Positions 57,090-64,000 of a stretch of 64,000 nt of DNA are shown one piece after another; positions within the stretch are counted from its first letter, which is position 1; every line of letters begins with the position of its first letter. The notes under the pieces were generated by a model that had not been told where the DNA came from, did no database searches, and was given only the letters and a program-made list of their open reading frames with translations. The position numbers and the translations under genes are program-made. The DNA lies in the NCBI GenBank assembly GCA_029762535.1, contig JARVGK010000010.1, forward strand, positions 1 through 64,000. The letters run 5' to 3'. The stretch is from Thermoplasmatota archaeon. Its GTDB lineage: Archaea; Thermoplasmatota; Penumbrarchaeia; Penumbrarchaeales; Penumbrarchaeaceae.

Positions 57090-58013
57090 ATGACACAGGA
57101 ATTCGATCTCGCGATAATCGGGGGAGGACCGGCCGGTATGACCGCCGCCATATATGCGGGCAGGTCGGGGTTGAGGGCGGCGGTCCTGGAAAAGGCGATG
57201 GCCGGGGGCCAGATTGCGCTTTCGTATCTTATCGAGAACTGGCCAGGGGACGCCGAGATCTCCGGAGCGGACCTTAGCGCCAGGATGAGGGGCCATGCGG
57301 AGCGATACGCCTCCATCATCGAGTTCTCGGAGATCACCTCGATAGAAAAGGAGGATGTGTTCGTGATAGATACTCCCGAGGGGAAGCTGAGGGCGAGGGC
57401 GGTCCTTATCGCCACCGGGGCGGAGCACAGGAAGCTTGGGGTTCCGGGCGAGGAGGGGCTTGGCGGAAGGGGGGTAAGCTACTGTGCCACCTGCGACGGG
57501 TTCTTCTTCAAAGGGAAGAGGGTGCTCGTTGTCGGAGGCGGCAACACCGCCGTCGAATACGCCATATATCTGCACAACATCGGATGCGACGTGTCCCTGG
57601 TCCACCGCAGGGGCGAGCTCAGGGCCGAGATGAAGATGCAGGAGGAGCTCGGAAAGAGGGATATCCAGGTCATATGGAACAGCGTTGTCCTCGAGTTCAG
57701 AGGCGATGGAACTCTGAAGGAGGTCCTGCTCAGGGACAAGTTATCTGGCGTGGAGAGGACCGTTGAGGCGGACGGGGTGTTCGTAGCCGTAGGTGAGGTC
57801 CCCAACAACGAGATCCCGAAGAGGCTGGGTCTCGACCTCGACCCTGATGGATACGTGATCGTGGACAGGATGATGAGGACATCGATCCCGGGGATATACG
57901 CTGCAGGCGATGTTACCGGGGGATTGAAGCAGGTCGTGGTCGCCGCCGGGGAGGGGGCCATAGCCGCAACGACGGCCTTCGAGGACCTCAGGGAGCCTTA
58001 CTGGATAGGATGA
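57090..58013 (+). CDS. trxB: Thioredoxin reductase
   Basis: IIGGGPAG, SYCATCDG, VVGGGNTA, HRR, YAAGDV. Confidence 0.96.
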   Translation: MTQEFDLAIIGGGPAGMTAAIYAGRSGLRAAVLEKAMAGGQIALSYLIENWPGDAEISGADLSARMRGHAERYASIIEFSEITSIEKEDVFVIDTPEGKLRARAVLIATGAEHRKLGVPGEEGLGGRGVSYCATCDGFFFKGKRVLVVGGGNTAVEYAIYLHNIGCDVSLVHRRGELRAEMKMQEELGKRDIQVIWNSVVLEFRGDGTLKEVLLRDKLSGVERTVEADGVFVAVGEVPNNEIPKRLGLDLDPDGYVIVDRMMRTSIPGIYAAGDVTGGLKQVVVAAGEGAIAATTAFEDLREPYWIG

Positions 58014-58346
58014 TCATTCCTCGTCCTCTTTGCCGCCGTCCATGAGGCGCTCGCCGAAGGCGATGGTCTCCAGCGTCCTTGCGACCCAAAGCCTGTTGGA
58101 ATGCCGGTCCACATCCTCCCTCATGCGTATCTCGGACTCGATCTGCATCCGCACCAGATGGTATCTGTACTTCTCGATCTCGGTATCCTCGACGATCTCC
58201 TCGACCATCATCGGAAGCGAATGCGGATCGTCCATGACCCGCGCTATCTTCTGAAGCAGGGGAGGGATCTTGGATGGTACCTCGCCTGCGCACAGGACCC
58301 GCAGGGTCCCGTCCTCGTTGGACCTCTTTCTTGACTGGGCATCCAT
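58014..58346 (-). CDS. Small helical hypothetical protein
   Basis: 110 aa with GGTGA RBS upstream of ATG 58346; stop abuts the trxB stop. Confidence 0.7.
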   Translation of the reverse strand: MDAQSRKRSNEDGTLRVLCAGEVPSKIPPLLQKIARVMDDPHSLPMMVEEIVEDTEIEKYRYHLVRMQIESEIRMREDVDRHSNRLWVARTLETIAFGERLMDGGKEDEE

Positions 58347-58634
58347 GTCATATCACCCGGGAACCATGTAATGAAAAGGTCGTATAACATACTTGGCATG
58401 GACCCATTTGCCGGCTTGTAAAACATCGCCTCGGCCCTCCCGGAAAAGGCCGAAAAATCAATAGGAATAAATATGCGAACCCCCGCATTTCCGATGGAGA
58501 CGCCGTCCTCCCAAGTGCCCTTCGCGCTCGGATAGGACCCTGGACTTGGACCAACCCTTCCTCATACTGGCTGCGGTGTATGATGCGGCGATCCCCCTGA
58601 TATGGAACATGGTTTCCATTTCCATTGGAACATC

Positions 58635-58652
58635 CGAAGAACCGTTATATAG
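58635..58652 (+). promoter_or_regulatory. Archaeal BRE + TATA promoter for the candidate large ncRNA
   Basis: cgaagaaccg-TTATATAG; standard spacing predicts a start at about G58675; TGGAACAT direct repeats at 58603 and 58626 just upstream. Confidence 0.7.
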
Positions 58653-58674
58653 CACCGGTTCCTCTACCATCTTT

Positions 58675-59315
58675 GCCTGGGACGGGTGAACTCCAACGGT
58701 CCACGTTGTCCGGATCGGAGCGACCCAACCCAACGCTATCAGGCACCCATCCGACCGGATCCCTTGGGGTCCAAACCGATGGGATGCGAAGCATACCAAA
58801 GACCTGGGCTTCTGTCCTTGTCCAAGGTGATGCGAGGAAGTGCAGGGCCCCTTCGAAGCGCCCGCAAAATGATGCCTTCGGGCAACCTGATGCGAAGCCC
58901 TTCGATACCTTCCCTCCGGGGAAGGAGGCGCTGCCGCAGAGGCATGATCCCTCCGGGATCATTTCCCCCCCTGGGAAATGGTCACCACCGGAGATCCTCC
59001 CCGCAAGGGACGGATCACGGGATCCAAAGCGACCCAAAAGGAAGGAAACCTCGGTTTCCCGGACCTGGATCGAAAAGAAATGCAGGAAAGGTCGGCCCCG
59101 CCGATCCTCCTCTCTCCAACGATCCATCTTCGCGGGCCTTAAAAACCCGAACCCTATGGAAAGCTCGGATCCCTACGGGTGAAATACCTCATCCCGCATT
59201 CGCTTTCGCTTCCAGACCCCGTCTGGAACGCCTGGGGCTGTTCACACGGCCCGGAGCGTAGGGAGACCAGGCCGTTGGGGGAGGCGTCCTCGGACCCTCC
59301 CCCAACGTCATTTTT
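58675..59315 (+). ncRNA. Candidate large (~600-640 nt) highly structured non-coding RNA of unknown class
   Basis: More than 12 stem-loops including cUUCGg and cGCAAg loops; possible 5'/3' closing helix GCCUGG/CCAGGC; own promoter and terminator; overlapping ORFs are not protein-like. Confidence 0.7.
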
Positions 59316-59325
59316 GGACGTTTTT
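59273..59325 (+). terminator. Terminator-like hairpin followed by oligo-T tracts
   Basis: Perfect 12-bp stem cgttgggggagg (59273-59284)/cctcccccaacg (59296-59307), then T5 at 59311-59315 and 59321-59325. Confidence 0.7.
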
Positions 59326-59365
59326 CCTTGAACATCTATTAATATATAATCATGATACATGCCCG

Positions 59366-60535
59366 GTGATCTCGACGTTCTCCAAGAGGATCCGGGAGCT
59401 CGCTCCCTCCGGTACCGTGATGCTTGCGAACAGGATTAAGAAGCTCAAATCCAAGGGAGTGGACATAATCTCCTTTAACCTGGGCGAGCCGGATTTCGAC
59501 ACGCCACCCAAAGTGGTGGAGGCCGCGAAGCATGCTCTGGACCGCGGCGATACACATTACACGCCCTCCCTCGGGACAAACGAGCTGAGGTCCGCGGTGG
59601 CGGACCATGTATGGAACAAGAACGGGATCCCGGCAAAAGTTGACAATGTCATGATAATGCCGGCCAAGTTCGCCCTTTACGCGGCACTGCAGGCGCTTGT
59701 GGACGTCGGTGACGAGGTCATATACCCCGACCCTGGTTGGGTATCGTACGGCCCCATGGTGCAGCTGGCGGGAGGCGTCTGCCGTCCGGTCAGAATGATA
59801 AACGACGGATATTGGCACTGGAGGCCAAAGGACATCGAGGACGCCATAAACGACCGGACCAGGGCCATCATCATCAACACGCCCTCGAACCCAACGGGCA
59901 GTGTGATGTCCTTGAAGGACCTGGAGCAGATAGCGGCCATCGCCAAGGACCACGACCTCTACGTCATATCCGATGAGATATACGAGGACCTGATCTACGA
60001 TGGCAAGCACTGCTCCATCGCATCTCTGTTCGGTATGGCCGATCGGACCCTCACCGTATCGGGTCTTTCGAAAAGCTATGCCATGACGGGTTGGAGGTTG
60101 GGGTGGCTCATCGCCGACAGGGAGATCATAAAGATGGTGAACAAACTGCAGCAGCATTCCCTCACTTGCCTTCCCGGATTCATCCAGCAGGCGGCGGTGA
60201 CCGCCCTTTCGGAGAGCGAGAGCGTGGAGGCCATGCGAAAGGAGTTCATGGAGAGGAGGGACATGCTCGTGCCGCTCATCAACTCGATACCCGGCCTCTC
60301 ATGCGAGACCCCCCAGGGCGCCTTCTACGCCTTCTTCAAGGCGGACCTCGGATACGATTCCATGACGCTCTCCGAGATGCTGATAGACAGGGCCAACGTC
60401 GCCCTTACGCCCGGATCCGCCTTCGGAGAGGGAGGGGAGGGTTACCTGCGCATGTCCTATGCCGCCAGCCGCGAGGACATAGCGGAGGGAATGAGGCGTA
60501 TCAAGGAGGTCGCTGAAGGTATAATGTCCGCTTGA
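59366..60535 (+). CDS. PLP-dependent aminotransferase class I/II (aspartate aminotransferase-like)
   Basis: LGEPDF, NTPSNPTG, SDEIY, GLSKSYAMTGWRLG, GAFY, YLRMSY; own TATA box (attaatatata, about 59338-59348). Confidence 0.93.
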   Translation: MISTFSKRIRELAPSGTVMLANRIKKLKSKGVDIISFNLGEPDFDTPPKVVEAAKHALDRGDTHYTPSLGTNELRSAVADHVWNKNGIPAKVDNVMIMPAKFALYAALQALVDVGDEVIYPDPGWVSYGPMVQLAGGVCRPVRMINDGYWHWRPKDIEDAINDRTRAIIINTPSNPTGSVMSLKDLEQIAAIAKDHDLYVISDEIYEDLIYDGKHCSIASLFGMADRTLTVSGLSKSYAMTGWRLGWLIADREIIKMVNKLQQHSLTCLPGFIQQAAVTALSESESVEAMRKEFMERRDMLVPLINSIPGLSCETPQGAFYAFFKADLGYDSMTLSEMLIDRANVALTPGSAFGEGGEGYLRMSYAASREDIAEGMRRIKEVAEGIMSA

Positions 60536-60537
60536 CC

Positions 60538-63500
60538 TCAATCGATCTCGTATGCCTCGACCGAAGCCCGATCCGCTGTATCCCTCTCCCTCCTCCTGAT
60601 GATGAAGAAGGCGGCGGAAGCGGCGGATGCTAATAAAAGGACCCCTGCCAGGACGAATATCCAAACCCGGCACTGTACCGAGAACGTCACGGATGCGGTT
60701 TCACGGTTCCCGGCGGCATCCCTCGCCTCCACCGTGAGATAATGCTTTCCTGTCCCTGCCTCGATCGTCCTTTCGGTCGCCGGCGACCAGTCGGAGAGGA
60801 CACGTCCACCTTCGACCACCCTGTATTCCACGGGGAAAGCGTCATCGGTCCCGGCCATTGAGAGTATTAAGACGTTTCGCCCGACGCGGGACGTCTTCAC
60901 CTCGAGTCGGGGCGCTAACACATCGTAGCGTATCTCCGAAAGACCTACCTCGCCCGCGTTCCCGGCCAGGTCCACAGCGAAATAGTTCAATAGGTATATT
61001 CCCTCCTCCCCTGGCATCGGGACGCTGCCTTCATAACGAACGGGATCCCCTCCGAAGTAGTAGAACAGTTCCACGTCCTCATCCGAGGACAAGGAAATGA
61101 CTGGTGCGGTCCTGAATATGCCGTTGGTCATATCCCCTGAAAGCTCCATTATAGCAATCGGGGGGTTCGTATCGACCTTGAGGGTGCGCCGGAACATCGG
61201 GCTTTGCCAACCCGCCGGATCGACGGCGTAGGCCTCCAGCTCGTGCTCGCCCTCATCGATACGTATGGAGGAGAAATATCCGGTCCAGGGGCCCTGATCG
61301 ATGCGGTACCGGACCTCGGAGGCGATGTTGTCGTAAGCCTTCATCTCGACTCTCGGGGAGGTGACGTGTATCCCGTTCCTGCCGTCCGGTTCGTCCGGAT
61401 GGACGAATGCCTCCAGAACTGGCGGGGATGCGTCCACGAGAACGGGATAGGTGTGGACCAATCCGATGTTCCCTGCAGCGTCGAAAGCCCTGTATTGCAG
61501 CGTGTGGGAGCCTTCCGGCAGCCTTATGGGCGCAGAATACGGCTCGAAATCCGATCTCGGATCTAGCCTGAACTGAACTGAAGCCCCATCCTCCGAGCTC
61601 TCGAGGACCAGCAGGGGCCTCGTCCTGTACCAGCTGTCGAGGCCGTCCGGTGAGACGGGGGACAGCAGATGCGATGCCTCGGGCGGCGTGGAATCGATCA
61701 GGAAGGAGGTCTCGGTGACGTTCGATGACCTCCCCGAACCATCGACAGCATAAACCCTCAGGACATGGGACCCATCCGGTACGTAGAACGGACCGTCATA
61801 TTCTCGGTAAGGCCCCCCGTCAAGGGAGTGTAACGCCGCCACGGGCGCCCCCTCGTCATAAACCGGAGTTATCGTTATCATGGGCTCGGAGATATAATGT
61901 CCTCCCTTACCGTCCGGGGTCTCGGGGCTTGTATACATCTCGAAGGCGGGATCCTTCAGATCAATCCTTATCGTGTGATGGCGCTCCTGTTCCAGGTTCT
62001 TAGCTATGTCCTCCGCGAAGTAGTGCACCTGGAACTCACCCTCCTCCTCCAGAGTGAACGTGAAATCGTTCGTCTCGTTGAGCTCTATCGTCGTTCCAGC
62101 GCCTATCCTGGCATGGACCACCCCCTTCTCGTCGGGGGCGATCCTGACCGAGACAGGGGAATGGAACCATCCGTTCTCCCCTTCCGGTTCAGAGGGATCG
62201 GTCGTAAGGAACGATGTGGGAGGGATCGTGTCCGCCACTCTGAATGCCGTGACAACTGGCCTGTGATCGTGCTTGCGTGCGCTCACGTTGATCTCGCAGA
62301 ACCAGCGGATGGACAGGTCGAACGCCGCCTCCCCGAACTGATCGGTCACTCCGTTCGCGAATACCCCCATCTGGAAGTTCTCCAGCGTCACGTTCACGCC
62401 TGGTACGGGAAGGTTATCCCGGTCCCTGACCTCTACTATGACGTGAGGGTCCAGGTCGTTCTCGTGCCTGATCTCGACATCGAACGAATTTACCGGCCCG
62501 GTCCATAGCTCGAGTGCGGTCTCACCGAGCATGTTGTACTCGAGCCAGCACATCGACACCTCTGAGTTGCCGCTGTTCTTGAACTGTCCCCCCCAGACCT
62601 CGGCGTAATGACCCTTGGCGTCCTTGAACGCCCTGCCCATAACGTACTCGCCAAGGCTTCCGACCTGCCTCGCGAGATCCTCCTGCAGCCCGTTGACGTA
62701 GGGAAGATACCTGTTCATACCTATGATGCCCACCGAGGTCCTCGATGACCCGGCGTAACCCGCGGCCCCTCCGCGGACGTTCTCTGTAAAGGATTCACCT
62801 ATGCATTCCCCGAACCACTGGTCGCTGCCGGAGCTGTCGTCGAACCAGGTCGTCAGACATGCCAATGTGGAGACCAGGGGCATCATCGCATCGTTCTCGA
62901 GCTTCGAGGCGTCACGGTCCCTGTATATCACTCCAGAACCGTAATTGTCGCACCAGACCGTCGGTCCACCGTGGTCGATGAACTGCACGAAACCCGCCCC
63001 GGGAGCGAGCGCTGAGTCCACTGCATTGATGGTGAGGTCCATATCGCTCTCGTATAGCTCGACCTTGTCGCCGTAGTGCCCTGATAGATGTTTGTTCCAG
63101 AGGTATTCGGAATGTGCGGGCCCGTCACCCTCGCTGTGGGTGTGTGCCGCGATGAGTACGGCCCTATCGGACCATGCCAGATCGCCAGGCCCCATCTCGT
63201 ACTCGATGATCTGCTCCACCTTGGCCTCCCATACTGATCCCTCGTTGATCGCGAGCCTGGACACGGATATGTCCGGGACTATGTCCTCGAGATCGCCGAT
63301 CTCCGCGAATATCCCGTCCCCGTCCAGGTCCCAGGTCCCGTCCAGGCATGCAAAGTAGAAGTCCGCCGGAAGGTATCCGTCGTCCCAACCCGGATAAGGG
63401 TTGGCATCCTGGACCCTCTTTGTCGGGACGATGTCCCAGTCCCCGGCCAGAAGGACGTGCTCCAGCACCCCCCATCCGTAGTGAACGTCGCGAAGGTATT

Positions 63501-64000
63501 CCCTTATCGCGTCGGCGGGATCCTCTCGTCCGGGATACGCTACAAGTATGTCCTCGACGGCTATTATCGAGGTCGGCAGGCCCCTGCCGCTCCTCCACCG
63601 GGCGAGAGGCTCGAGGGAACCTCTCAGGTACTCGCCGGTGACTATGATGTATGACGGAGGGACCTCCATATATGGGGTGACGGAAACGGTCCCGGGGACC
63701 CCCTCCGGGGACCCGGAGGACCGGGCCGGGATCGGGTCCTCTTCCCAGTCGATGTGTACCTCTGTCGTTGGGTGCGCCGTCGCCTCGCCGGACGAAGAAA
63801 GTGTCATCGGGCATATCCAGAGGGAATAGACGCTGAGGAGACGCCCCCCTTTCAATCGGTGACCGATATGGGAGAGGCGCAGCGGATCCGCGGGATAGGT
63901 TCCACTGCCTCTCCACGGTAGAATGGGATCCGCCTCCTCGTAGGGGGAGACGGCCCTGATCATTCCCATCACCGGGCGATCGAGCATCACTGTCCTGCCC
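60538..64000 (-). CDS. Peptidase C25 (gingipain family) with Ig-like stalk repeats and C-terminal TM; 5' end outside the window
   Basis: YIIVT, VLLAGD, ADFYFACLDG, PDISVSRL, FIDHGG (His), TLACL (Cys), GGAAGYAG, YNMLGE; frame open to the window edge. Confidence 0.88.
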   Translation of the reverse strand, partial: GRTVMLDRPVMGMIRAVSPYEEADPILPWRGSGTYPADPLRLSHIGHRLKGGRLLSVYSLWICPMTLSSSGEATAHPTTEVHIDWEEDPIPARSSGSPEGVPGTVSVTPYMEVPPSYIIVTGEYLRGSLEPLARWRSGRGLPTSIIAVEDILVAYPGREDPADAIREYLRDVHYGWGVLEHVLLAGDWDIVPTKRVQDANPYPGWDDGYLPADFYFACLDGTWDLDGDGIFAEIGDLEDIVPDISVSRLAINEGSVWEAKVEQIIEYEMGPGDLAWSDRAVLIAAHTHSEGDGPAHSEYLWNKHLSGHYGDKVELYESDMDLTINAVDSALAPGAGFVQFIDHGGPTVWCDNYGSGVIYRDRDASKLENDAMMPLVSTLACLTTWFDDSSGSDQWFGECIGESFTENVRGGAAGYAGSSRTSVGIIGMNRYLPYVNGLQEDLARQVGSLGEYVMGRAFKDAKGHYAEVWGGQFKNSGNSEVSMCWLEYNMLGETALELWTGPVNSFDVEIRHENDLDPHVIVEVRDRDNLPVPGVNVTLENFQMGVFANGVTDQFGEAAFDLSIRWFCEINVSARKHDHRPVVTAFRVADTIPPTSFLTTDPSEPEGENGWFHSPVSVRIAPDEKGVVHARIGAGTTIELNETNDFTFTLEEEGEFQVHYFAEDIAKNLEQERHHTIRIDLKDPAFEMYTSPETPDGKGGHYISEPMITITPVYDEGAPVAALHSLDGGPYREYDGPFYVPDGSHVLRVYAVDGSGRSSNVTETSFLIDSTPPEASHLLSPVSPDGLDSWYRTRPLLVLESSEDGASVQFRLDPRSDFEPYSAPIRLPEGSHTLQYRAFDAAGNIGLVHTYPVLVDASPPVLEAFVHPDEPDGRNGIHVTSPRVEMKAYDNIASEVRYRIDQGPWTGYFSSIRIDEGEHELEAYAVDPAGWQSPMFRRTLKVDTNPPIAIMELSGDMTNGIFRTAPVISLSSDEDVELFYYFGGDPVRYEGSVPMPGEEGIYLLNYFAVDLAGNAGEVGLSEIRYDVLAPRLEVKTSRVGRNVLILSMAGTDDAFPVEYRVVEGGRVLSDWSPATERTIEAGTGKHYLTVEARDAAGNRETASVTFSVQCRVWIFVLAGVLLLASAASAAFFIIRRRERDTADRASVEAYEID

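Follow-up and report, generated by a model that had tools for sequence, protein, structure and literature searches.

Evidence for a previously undescribed large structured RNA with clamped ends in one family of uncultured Thermoplasmatota archaea

In the stretch of 64,000 nt analyzed here (the window; contig JARVGK010000010.1 of a Thermoplasmatota archaeon, positions 1 to 64,000), a gap between positions 58347 and 59365 is flanked by a gene for a protein of 110 amino acids (58014-58346, minus strand), which has no Pfam family, and by a class I/II aminotransferase gene (59366-60535), an aspartate aminotransferase gene with the start codon GTG at 59366. The gap contains, at 58675-59316 on the plus strand, the gene of a previously undescribed RNA whose occurrence is restricted to a single family of uncultured Thermoplasmatota. 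The predicted transcript of approximately 640 nt extends from G58675 to the first run of five thymines (T5). An earlier inspection of the letters (the sequence-only reading) had proposed at this position a large structured RNA of no known class that stands alone and has a promoter and a terminator to itself. This proposal was borne out by homologues, by covariation and by conservation of the promoter. The segment shows what is generally found in structured non-coding RNA (ncRNA) genes: compensatory changes exceeding those of controls, strand-specific G-U pairs, a promoter and a terminator of its own, and selection without a codon signature. With high confidence, it is a genuine stand-alone structured ncRNA gene with a clamp architecture.

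A cmscan search with all 4227 families of Rfam 15, including OLE, GOLLD, ROOL, HEARO, raiA, group I and II introns and the C/D and H/ACA small RNAs, gave no match at the gathering threshold, neither for the window nor for the loci of eight relatives. At E≤10, just two matches at chance level were obtained, both on the opposite strand. The model of the archaeal RNase P RNA (RF00373) did not match the window even at E≤10, nor did the covariance model of the archaeal signal recognition particle (SRP) RNA (RF01857) find a match there. Both identities are excluded because the true genes were found elsewhere in the genome, the RNase P RNA gene at C91:43322-43635 (182 bits) and the SRP RNA gene at C14:12999-13322 (132 bits); the sequence-only reading had not found the diagnostic motifs of these RNAs here. 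A description of the RNA was not found in the literature.

Upstream of the RNA, an ungapped alignment of 75 nt is possible across all genera of the family; it comprises four conserved elements. The element AAATGTTAC is located at about -65. A palindrome, TTCCATTGGAA in the window (58620-58630, plus strand), is conserved in every genus in the form TTCCAnTGGAA or TTCCnnTGGAA at a fixed, ungapped distance (about -55 to -45 for the window, about -52 to -42 in the alignment). The TATA box TTATATAG (58645-58652), which is preceded by an A-rich stretch resembling a B recognition element (BRE), is identical in a congener (L174), and each genus has the sequence TTAtATAt at -30 to -23. The combination of the palindrome, 8 to 16 nt and a TATA box is unique in the genome. 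As a marker of a regulon, the palindrome had to be rejected, since its additional genomic copies occur at chance level only. G58675 is preceded by a T (a T|G start) and lies 23 nt past the TATA box, which is the canonical distance; the spacing between the promoter and the GCC at the beginning of the RNA is identical and ungapped in every genus. The BRE/TATA promoter and the start at G58675 named in the sequence-only reading are thereby corroborated. From +1 onwards, the first six bases of the RNA belong to a helix (P1, see below), hence there is no leader. Two blocks in the vicinity deserve mention. The RNase P RNA promoter of the same genome (C91:43290-43321) and positions 58648-58668 have the sequence TATAGCA-N6-CCTCTAC in common, which, judged from the letters, may be a promoter-proximal element of stable RNAs. 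Further upstream, a 39-nt block (CATGTAATGAAAAGGTCGTATAACATACTTGGCATGGAC, 58366-58405) is 100% identical to that of the congener, as compared to 76% for the rest of the spacer; it probably belongs to the divergently oriented 110-aa gene, as promoter or 5′ end.

At the other end, a terminal hairpin (CGUUGGGGGAGG...CCUCCCCCAACG, 59273-59307, plus strand) with a 12+3-bp stem (-30.8 kcal/mol) is followed by the tail UCAUUUUU and a second T5 run (59308-59326), the T5 runs at 59312-16 and 59322-26 representing oligo-T termination signals. The unit thus closes with the 12-bp stem and T tracts that had been predicted. Across the genera, the hairpin has 12 to 16 bp (-23 to -35 kcal/mol), a core of GGGGGA/UCCCCC that is conserved and a base that covaries (CGUUG/CAACG, CGAUG/CAUCG, CAACG/CGUUG, CGAAG/CUUCG). 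In most genera, it is followed by a conserved (G/U)UCAUUU.

Conservation across the genera, when the whole sequence is considered, is limited to the ends of the RNA, where about 45 nt form a clamp of three helices, P1, P2 and P3. P1 consists of nt 1-6 (GCCUGG, 58675-58680) and the six bases directly before the 3′ hairpin (59267-59272). It covaries across genera by swaps of U-A for C-G and of G-C for A-U (GCCCGG/CCGGGC, GCCCAG/CUGGGC, GCCUGG/CCAGGC) and was recovered by RNAalifold independently. A pairing between the 5′ GCCUGG and CCAGGC had already been suggested in the sequence-only reading and is upheld by these data. What did not hold is the idea that an internal GCCUGG at 59230 competes for CCAGGC, as this copy pairs with CAGGC at 58740-44. 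An early model, in which the 5′ end paired with a segment just after P2, was dropped in favor of the distal P1 together with P3. The distal P1 is preferred because it is supported by RNAalifold and by the covariation between genera, and because in genus g5 the distal partner alone matches.

The P2 hairpin (58684-58726, plus strand) is composed of GGGU/ACCC, CUCC/GGAG, an AAC bulge and GGUCC/GGAUC. In the alignment, it appears as a covarying stem of about 10 bp with the AAC bulge and GGUCC/GGAUC, capped by a 9-nt loop, AYGUUGUCC (ACGUUGUCC at 58703-58711), that is identical in almost all genomes. Paired residues account for 93.7% of the alignment cells and five compensatory pairs were counted, compared to 0-2 in slid controls; in one relative (L157), GGUCC/GGAUC is replaced by GAUUC/GAAUC. 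Since many of the P2 pairs are G-U, the RNA must be read from the plus strand, a direction also indicated by the promoter, the T-runs and the folding z-scores. P3 is formed by the segment right after P2 (CCCAACGCU, 58729-58737) and a segment 3-5 nt ahead of the 3′ strand of P1 (AGCGUAGGG, 59255-59263), so that the 3′ strands of P3 and P1 both fall within 59255-59272. The P3 sequences are unrelated between genera but have retained their complementarity: cognate duplexes reach on average -15.5 kcal/mol versus -10.3 kcal/mol for non-cognate ones (0/20000 in a permutation test), and two compensatory pairs exist within the trio of g1-like RNAs. For the invariant P2 loop, the best internal complements lie at non-homologous positions, none giving a consistent pseudoknot partner. 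Nor was the loop more complementary to 16S, 23S, SRP or RNase P RNA than shuffled probes were, and a sequence mimicking rRNA is not present in the RNA.

Between the strands of P3 extends the variable interior (58738-59254, plus strand). The segment 58675-59315 has a minimum free energy (MFE) of -297.6 kcal/mol, corresponding to z = -5.5 on the plus strand versus -4.0 on the minus strand (dinucleotide shuffles). The interior is predicted to fold into a spine of nested long-range helices (58740-44/59230-34, 58786-91/59204-09, 58829-34/59195-200 and 59019-25/59167-73) with hairpin branches capped by UUCG, UCCG, CUCG and GCAA. The congener RNA, which is 92% identical and was found via the neighboring protein, differs from that in the window by 52 substitutions and no indels. 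These avoid positions paired in the MFE structure: nine are disruptive, while 20.7±2.5 were expected (0/5000 randomisations), and three compensatory pairs were observed versus 0.7 expected. When the RNA of a sister lineage (L179; 637 nt, 58% identical) was included in this comparison, 30 compensatory pairs were counted on the MFE structure of the window, compared to 4-9 in slid controls; these pairs fall in P3, in the spine helices, in the 3′ hairpin and in most of the other hairpins. For seven RNAs of genus g6, RNAalifold gave P1, P2, P3 and, again, a nested long-range spine with hairpin branches; 69 of the 305 predicted pairs are compensatory, as opposed to 14-27 with slid partners and 28±4 with shuffled columns. 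Covariation among homologues, proposed in the sequence-only reading as a check, is hence strong and well above the controls.

The individual helices listed in that reading fared unequally. Nine of 12 are present in the MFE structure and in the consensus of the three species, namely gggt/accc, tgcc-UUCG-ggca, ccttccc-UCCG-gggaagg, catttccc/gggaaatg, the GCAA-capped helix, ggaaac-CUCG-gtttcc, tggatcg/cgatcca, ttccagac/gtctggaa and GCCUGG/CCAGGC; of gcacccatc/gatgggatgc, the part CCCATC/GATGGG is present. The remaining three gave way to competing pairings: caacg/cgttg is displaced by the covarying GGTCC/GGATC, atgatccc/gggatcat by the 11-bp helix GATCATTTCCC/GGGAAATGGTC, and tccctacg/cgtaggga by the long-range P3 (58729-37 with 59255-63). 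The motif GAUGCGA(A/G)G occurs at 58783, 58829 and 58889. A reading of these repeats as C/D boxes or kink-turns was rejected, as only one copy, the middle one, is conserved in the congener and the sister lineage; a repeated kink-turn or box C module is therefore unlikely.

Tetraloops of exceptional stability exist in all lineages, though of differing type, YNCG in most of them and GCAA in genus g2 and in a further lineage (L170). In other genera, many CC-YYCG-GG hairpins were detected. The g2 RNA (L159:37-1574, minus strand; 1538 nt) contains 12 GGGGCAACCC hairpins with a near-invariant apex, GGGG(C/U)AACC(C/U), and a GNRA loop. Their spacing is approximately 77 nt (72-79; two further intervals measure about 149 nt and two others 61 nt). 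Three hairpins with this apex are present in the L170 RNA. Tandem Repeats Finder detected no tandem repeats in the g2 RNA, the periodicity being confined to the 10-nt hairpin motif.

To survey the distribution of the RNA, a covariance model of its first 78 nt, the 5′ domain, was used. The model had been built with the early, later rejected P1 pairing but is still valid as a search tool. Within the family, it found the RNA in 23 of 24 genomes and in all seven genera, with a single copy in 22; the only genome without a match is 62% complete. Beyond the family, there was no match in 13 genomes of other families of the class or in 134 genomes of a phylum sample of other Thermoplasmatota families. 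BLAST revealed a 28-nt core (TCCAACGGTCCAYGTTGTCCGGATCGGA, 58692-58719) that is near-identical in other genera of the family. The homologues that the sequence-only reading had recommended to look for thus occur in every genus. In its own genome, the RNA is single-copy as well, the second BLAST match being the terminal hairpin aligned with its own reverse complement. Additional copies were found on metagenome contigs. A scan of public contigs with a degenerate 18-nt pattern returned mostly chance matches in bacteria, the real ones being two contigs of Thermoplasmatota metagenome-assembled genomes. At the locus of one relative, which carries a g3-type RNA, the aminotransferase bears the name 'Thermoplasmatales archaeon ex4484_6'; the family hence probably belongs to the GTDB class EX4484-6, for which the name Ca. 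Penumbrarchaeia has been proposed (PMC12220078). The length of the RNA, taken from complete copies, increases from 637 nt in the sister lineage and 639 nt in the window (genus g1) to 738 nt (L170), about 800 nt (g5), 864-1008 nt (g3), about 930 nt (g4), 962-997 nt (g6), 1095 nt (g7) and 1538 nt (g2). In every lineage, the RNA is richer in G+C than its flanks, by 2.5-10 points.

The RNA is under purifying selection without a codon signature. Compared to the congener, substitutions amount to 16-19 per codon position in the six frames, with a ratio of synonymous to non-synonymous changes of about 11:31. The corresponding values are [24, 11, 81] and 72:32 for the aminotransferase gene, and [6, 5, 35] and 26:14 for the 110-aa gene. 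The divergence of the RNA is 8%, versus 21% at third positions of the aminotransferase gene and 24% in the upstream spacer. Overlapping open reading frames (ORFs) of 185, 191 and 160 aa have no Pfam match and no codon signature, and two sense frames open in the congener are each interrupted by a stop in the window. Codon-level conservation, which according to the sequence-only reading would speak against an ncRNA, is therefore missing in each frame. Public gene calls on the sense strand of the RNA, one of 240 aa in the congener (L174:2002-2724, minus strand) and one of 215 aa in other relatives (L180; L181:1638-2285, plus strand), are spurious ORFs in a G+C-rich structured RNA. These 'hypothetical protein' annotations of 215-240 aa should be removed.

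Four contigs of the Joint Genome Institute (JGI), 1.3-1.4 kb in length and derived from g2-like organisms, lie wholly within a g2-type RNA and have no flanking DNA (Ga0126368_12608, Ga0126368_11370, Ga0182065_1099419 and Ga0316593_10049837; L167, L168, L169 and L172). They start at nt 7-17 and end at nt 1324-1500 of the 1538 nt, and three other contigs continue into neighboring genes. The ends of these four contigs are suggestive of assembled transcripts.

How might such an RNA work? Transcription would proceed from its own regulated archaeal promoter, comprising the upstream palindrome and the TATA box, and would end at the 3′ hairpin and oligo-U. The RNA adopts a closed fold in which the 5′ end is paired, through P1, with the segment before the 3′ hairpin, and P3 stacks adjacent to it. 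From the resulting three-way junction of P1, P2 and P3, the P2 hairpin with its invariant 9-nt loop projects, and loop and junction might be the docking site for a conserved partner. Inside the clamp, the spine of nested helices carries many very stable tetraloop hairpins, whose number and sequence vary freely from genus to genus, which results in lengths of 637-1538 nt. The clamp and the 3′ hairpin may protect both ends of the RNA, and the expandable hairpin array could serve as a rigid spacer or as a multivalent platform. The conservation of the clamp only, the differing stable tetraloops and the periodic hairpins of g2 suggest that the small clamp is a specific site and the interior an expandable scaffold or platform. 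On these grounds, the RNA is tentatively interpreted as a long-lived ribonucleoprotein scaffold, an assignment that we hold with somewhat less than even confidence. Among the three classes suggested by the sequence-only reading (scaffold, ribonucleoprotein or ribozyme), a scaffold is favored and a ribozyme is less likely because it is about 45 nt at the two ends that are conserved across genera.

Several observations weigh against this interpretation. The hairpin loops that are repeated differ between genera (YNCG versus GCAA), which argues against one conserved loop-reading protein; a spacer and a platform are both compatible with it. The enrichment of tetraloops is modest in the window copy. 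The sequence-only reading had regarded the tetraloops as a hallmark of functional RNA, and they are indeed present, but the argument is weak on its own, as there are three YNCG hairpins in 640 nt and 1.3% of the 640-nt windows of the genome equal this number. The 3′ hairpin is missing in one genome, and only there (G010; L162, genus g5), which means that it is not strictly indispensable or that this assembly is faulty. In L162, CUGGGC is directly followed by the TTTTTT that belongs to the aminotransferase promoter; the hairpin has either been deleted naturally or been lost in a faulty assembly. Finally, no partner protein was found among the candidates examined, the neighboring protein and TROVE/Ro. 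The 110-aa protein was rejected as a specific partner because its phyletic pattern does not match that of the RNA: it occurs throughout the class, also in families devoid of the RNA, and was not detected in g4 and g5, both of which possess the RNA. Among the class families searched, it is present in most (not found in f7 and f9); in family f2, the gap beside its gene measures 118 nt only. TROVE/Ro60 (PF05731) was not found in the RNA's own genome (93% complete), and membership in a Y RNA/Ro60 particle was rejected for this reason.

A more far-reaching version of the scaffold interpretation is conceivable, if rather doubtful. The RNA would be an essential, abundant, particle-forming molecule invented in this family, whose clamp recruits a lineage-specific partner and whose freely expandable array of tetraloop hairpins, with periodic 77-nt GNRA modules in one genus, builds a higher-order RNA or ribonucleoprotein assembly of a novel type, and it would found an archaeal class of ornate RNAs.

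Apart from the scaffold, the RNA could be a large ribozyme or RNA-only machine, in which catalysis or ligand binding would take place in a core made of the junction and the invariant loop, and the hairpin array would lend peripheral stability, as is the case in group I and II introns or RNase P. Large ornate RNAs of bacteria have long been suspected to be ribozymes (PMC11332333), and the size, the constrained fold, the invariant P2 loop and the purifying selection over 640 nt would suit such a function. However, with about 45 nt conserved, no nucleotides of internal loops or junctions common to all lineages, no consistent pseudoknot partner of the invariant loop and a length varying 2.4-fold, this possibility appears unlikely. 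Just as unlikely is a role as a protein-titrating sponge or as a precursor of many small hairpin RNAs, the clamp then serving stability or processing. The 12 near-identical hairpins of g2 with their period of about 77 nt, the three of L170 and the CC-YYCG-GG hairpins elsewhere are what such a role would lead one to expect. On the other hand, the genera do not share the repeated motif, the window copy is devoid of a periodic motif and its GAUGCGARG repeats are not conserved in the congener and the sister lineage. Moreover, the four contigs that resemble transcripts cover nearly the whole RNA and not fragments of it.

A role in cis, as leader or attenuator of the aspartate aminotransferase gene, is suggested by the position of the RNA directly upstream of this gene in most genera, and in the genome without terminal hairpin, read-through would be possible. 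The gene order, 110-aa gene, RNA and aminotransferase gene, is kept across relatives, with the RNA usually upstream of the aminotransferase gene. Yet the latter has a separate TATA box outside the RNA (59338-59348, plus strand), and such a box is located about 25 nt ahead of its start codon in most genomes, with all genera represented. The RNA, for its part, ends in a hairpin of -31 kcal/mol and T-runs, and in two genomes (G013 and G020), other DNA separates it from the aminotransferase gene. A hypervariable leader of 640-1540 nt would also be without precedent, and a similarity between the 5′ domain of the RNA and the 5′ end of the mRNA was not significant. A leader function is accordingly very unlikely, and the opinion of the sequence-only reading that the segment is not the 5′ untranslated region of the aminotransferase gene is shared. 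An origin of the RNA from the 5′ end of the aminotransferase gene, or mimicry of it, was likewise rejected, the local similarity being not significant in most genera.

A protein-coding or decayed gene has next to no probability: the long overlapping ORFs and the public calls of 240 and 215 aa are its basis, against which stand the lack of codon-position bias, the ratio of 11:31 compared to 72:32, the frames stopped in the window, the missing Pfam matches and the many indels and 2.4-fold length differences among relatives, and a decaying pseudogene is ruled out because the RNA diverges less than third codon positions and spacer. An equally negligible chance falls to a mobile repeat similar to miniature inverted-repeat transposable elements (MITEs) or repetitive extragenic palindromes, or to another selfish element, since despite the richness in hairpins and G+C, each genome has one copy, whose chromosomal position is the same throughout the genera, and the MITE that the sequence-only reading had considered is thus not at hand.

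Some features of the neighborhood lie outside these questions. The 110-aa gene adjoins a thioredoxin-reductase-like gene (57090-58013, plus strand; Pyr_redox_2) in the window, in the congener, in the sister lineage and in family f2, and the two genes may be a functional pair. On the other side of the aminotransferase gene, 60538-63990 (minus strand) encodes a secreted-type protein of 1150 aa with peptidase C25 (gingipain-like) and Ig-like domains. The peptidase C25 protein is found beside the aminotransferase also in L174 and L181, in agreement with the proposal that members of the class live by degrading proteins.

To our knowledge, almost no large structured RNAs are known from Archaea besides rRNA, RNase P RNA and SRP RNA. 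In Bacteria, OLE, GOLLD, ROOL and raiA have each opened new biology. The RNA described here is near-universal and single-copy in its family, strongly constrained, and unusual in its design of a clamp around a hypervariable array. Its design recalls flexible scaffolds of the type of yeast telomerase RNA and RNase MRP RNA, in which small conserved protein-binding elements sit on long, fast-evolving arms of variable length. This is an analogy of design only, as there is no homology and no template region, and these archaea do not possess telomeres. With sponges such as CsrB and RsmZ, it shares repeated hairpins bearing the same apical motif (12 GGGGCAACCC in g2), but it differs from them by the lack of GGA motifs, by a motif that is neither shared by the genera nor present in the window copy, by its much larger size and by its conserved clamp. 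For the class Ca. Penumbrarchaeia, a 90% enrichment culture exists (PMC12220078), so that transcript mapping and pull-downs are feasible.

The closest parallels are the large ornate RNAs of Bacteria. OLE RNA (RF01071) of Bacillota is an intricate, single-copy RNA of about 600 nt that forms a ribonucleoprotein and occurs in anaerobic or extreme lineages (PMC9723947, PMC11332333). Like OLE, the new RNA is large, intricately folded, single-copy and confined to a lineage. By contrast, there is no match of sequence or structure between the two, and OLE is bacterial and located in an operon with partner genes (oapA and others). Furthermore, OLE has highly conserved stretches throughout, whereas the new RNA is conserved at its ends only, has a hypervariable interior and its own promoter and lacks an adjacent partner gene. 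GOLLD, ROOL and raiA were shown by cryo-EM to form RNA-only assemblies (bioRxiv 10.1101/2024.12.08.627333; PMC12968392). The new RNA resembles them in being large, ornate and lineage-restricted, and the GNRA modules of g2 would fit self-assembly. It has no match to them in Rfam, however, and they possess conserved multi-domain cores and are often associated with phages or plasmids, while the new RNA is chromosomal, vertically inherited and subject to a 2.4-fold variation in size.

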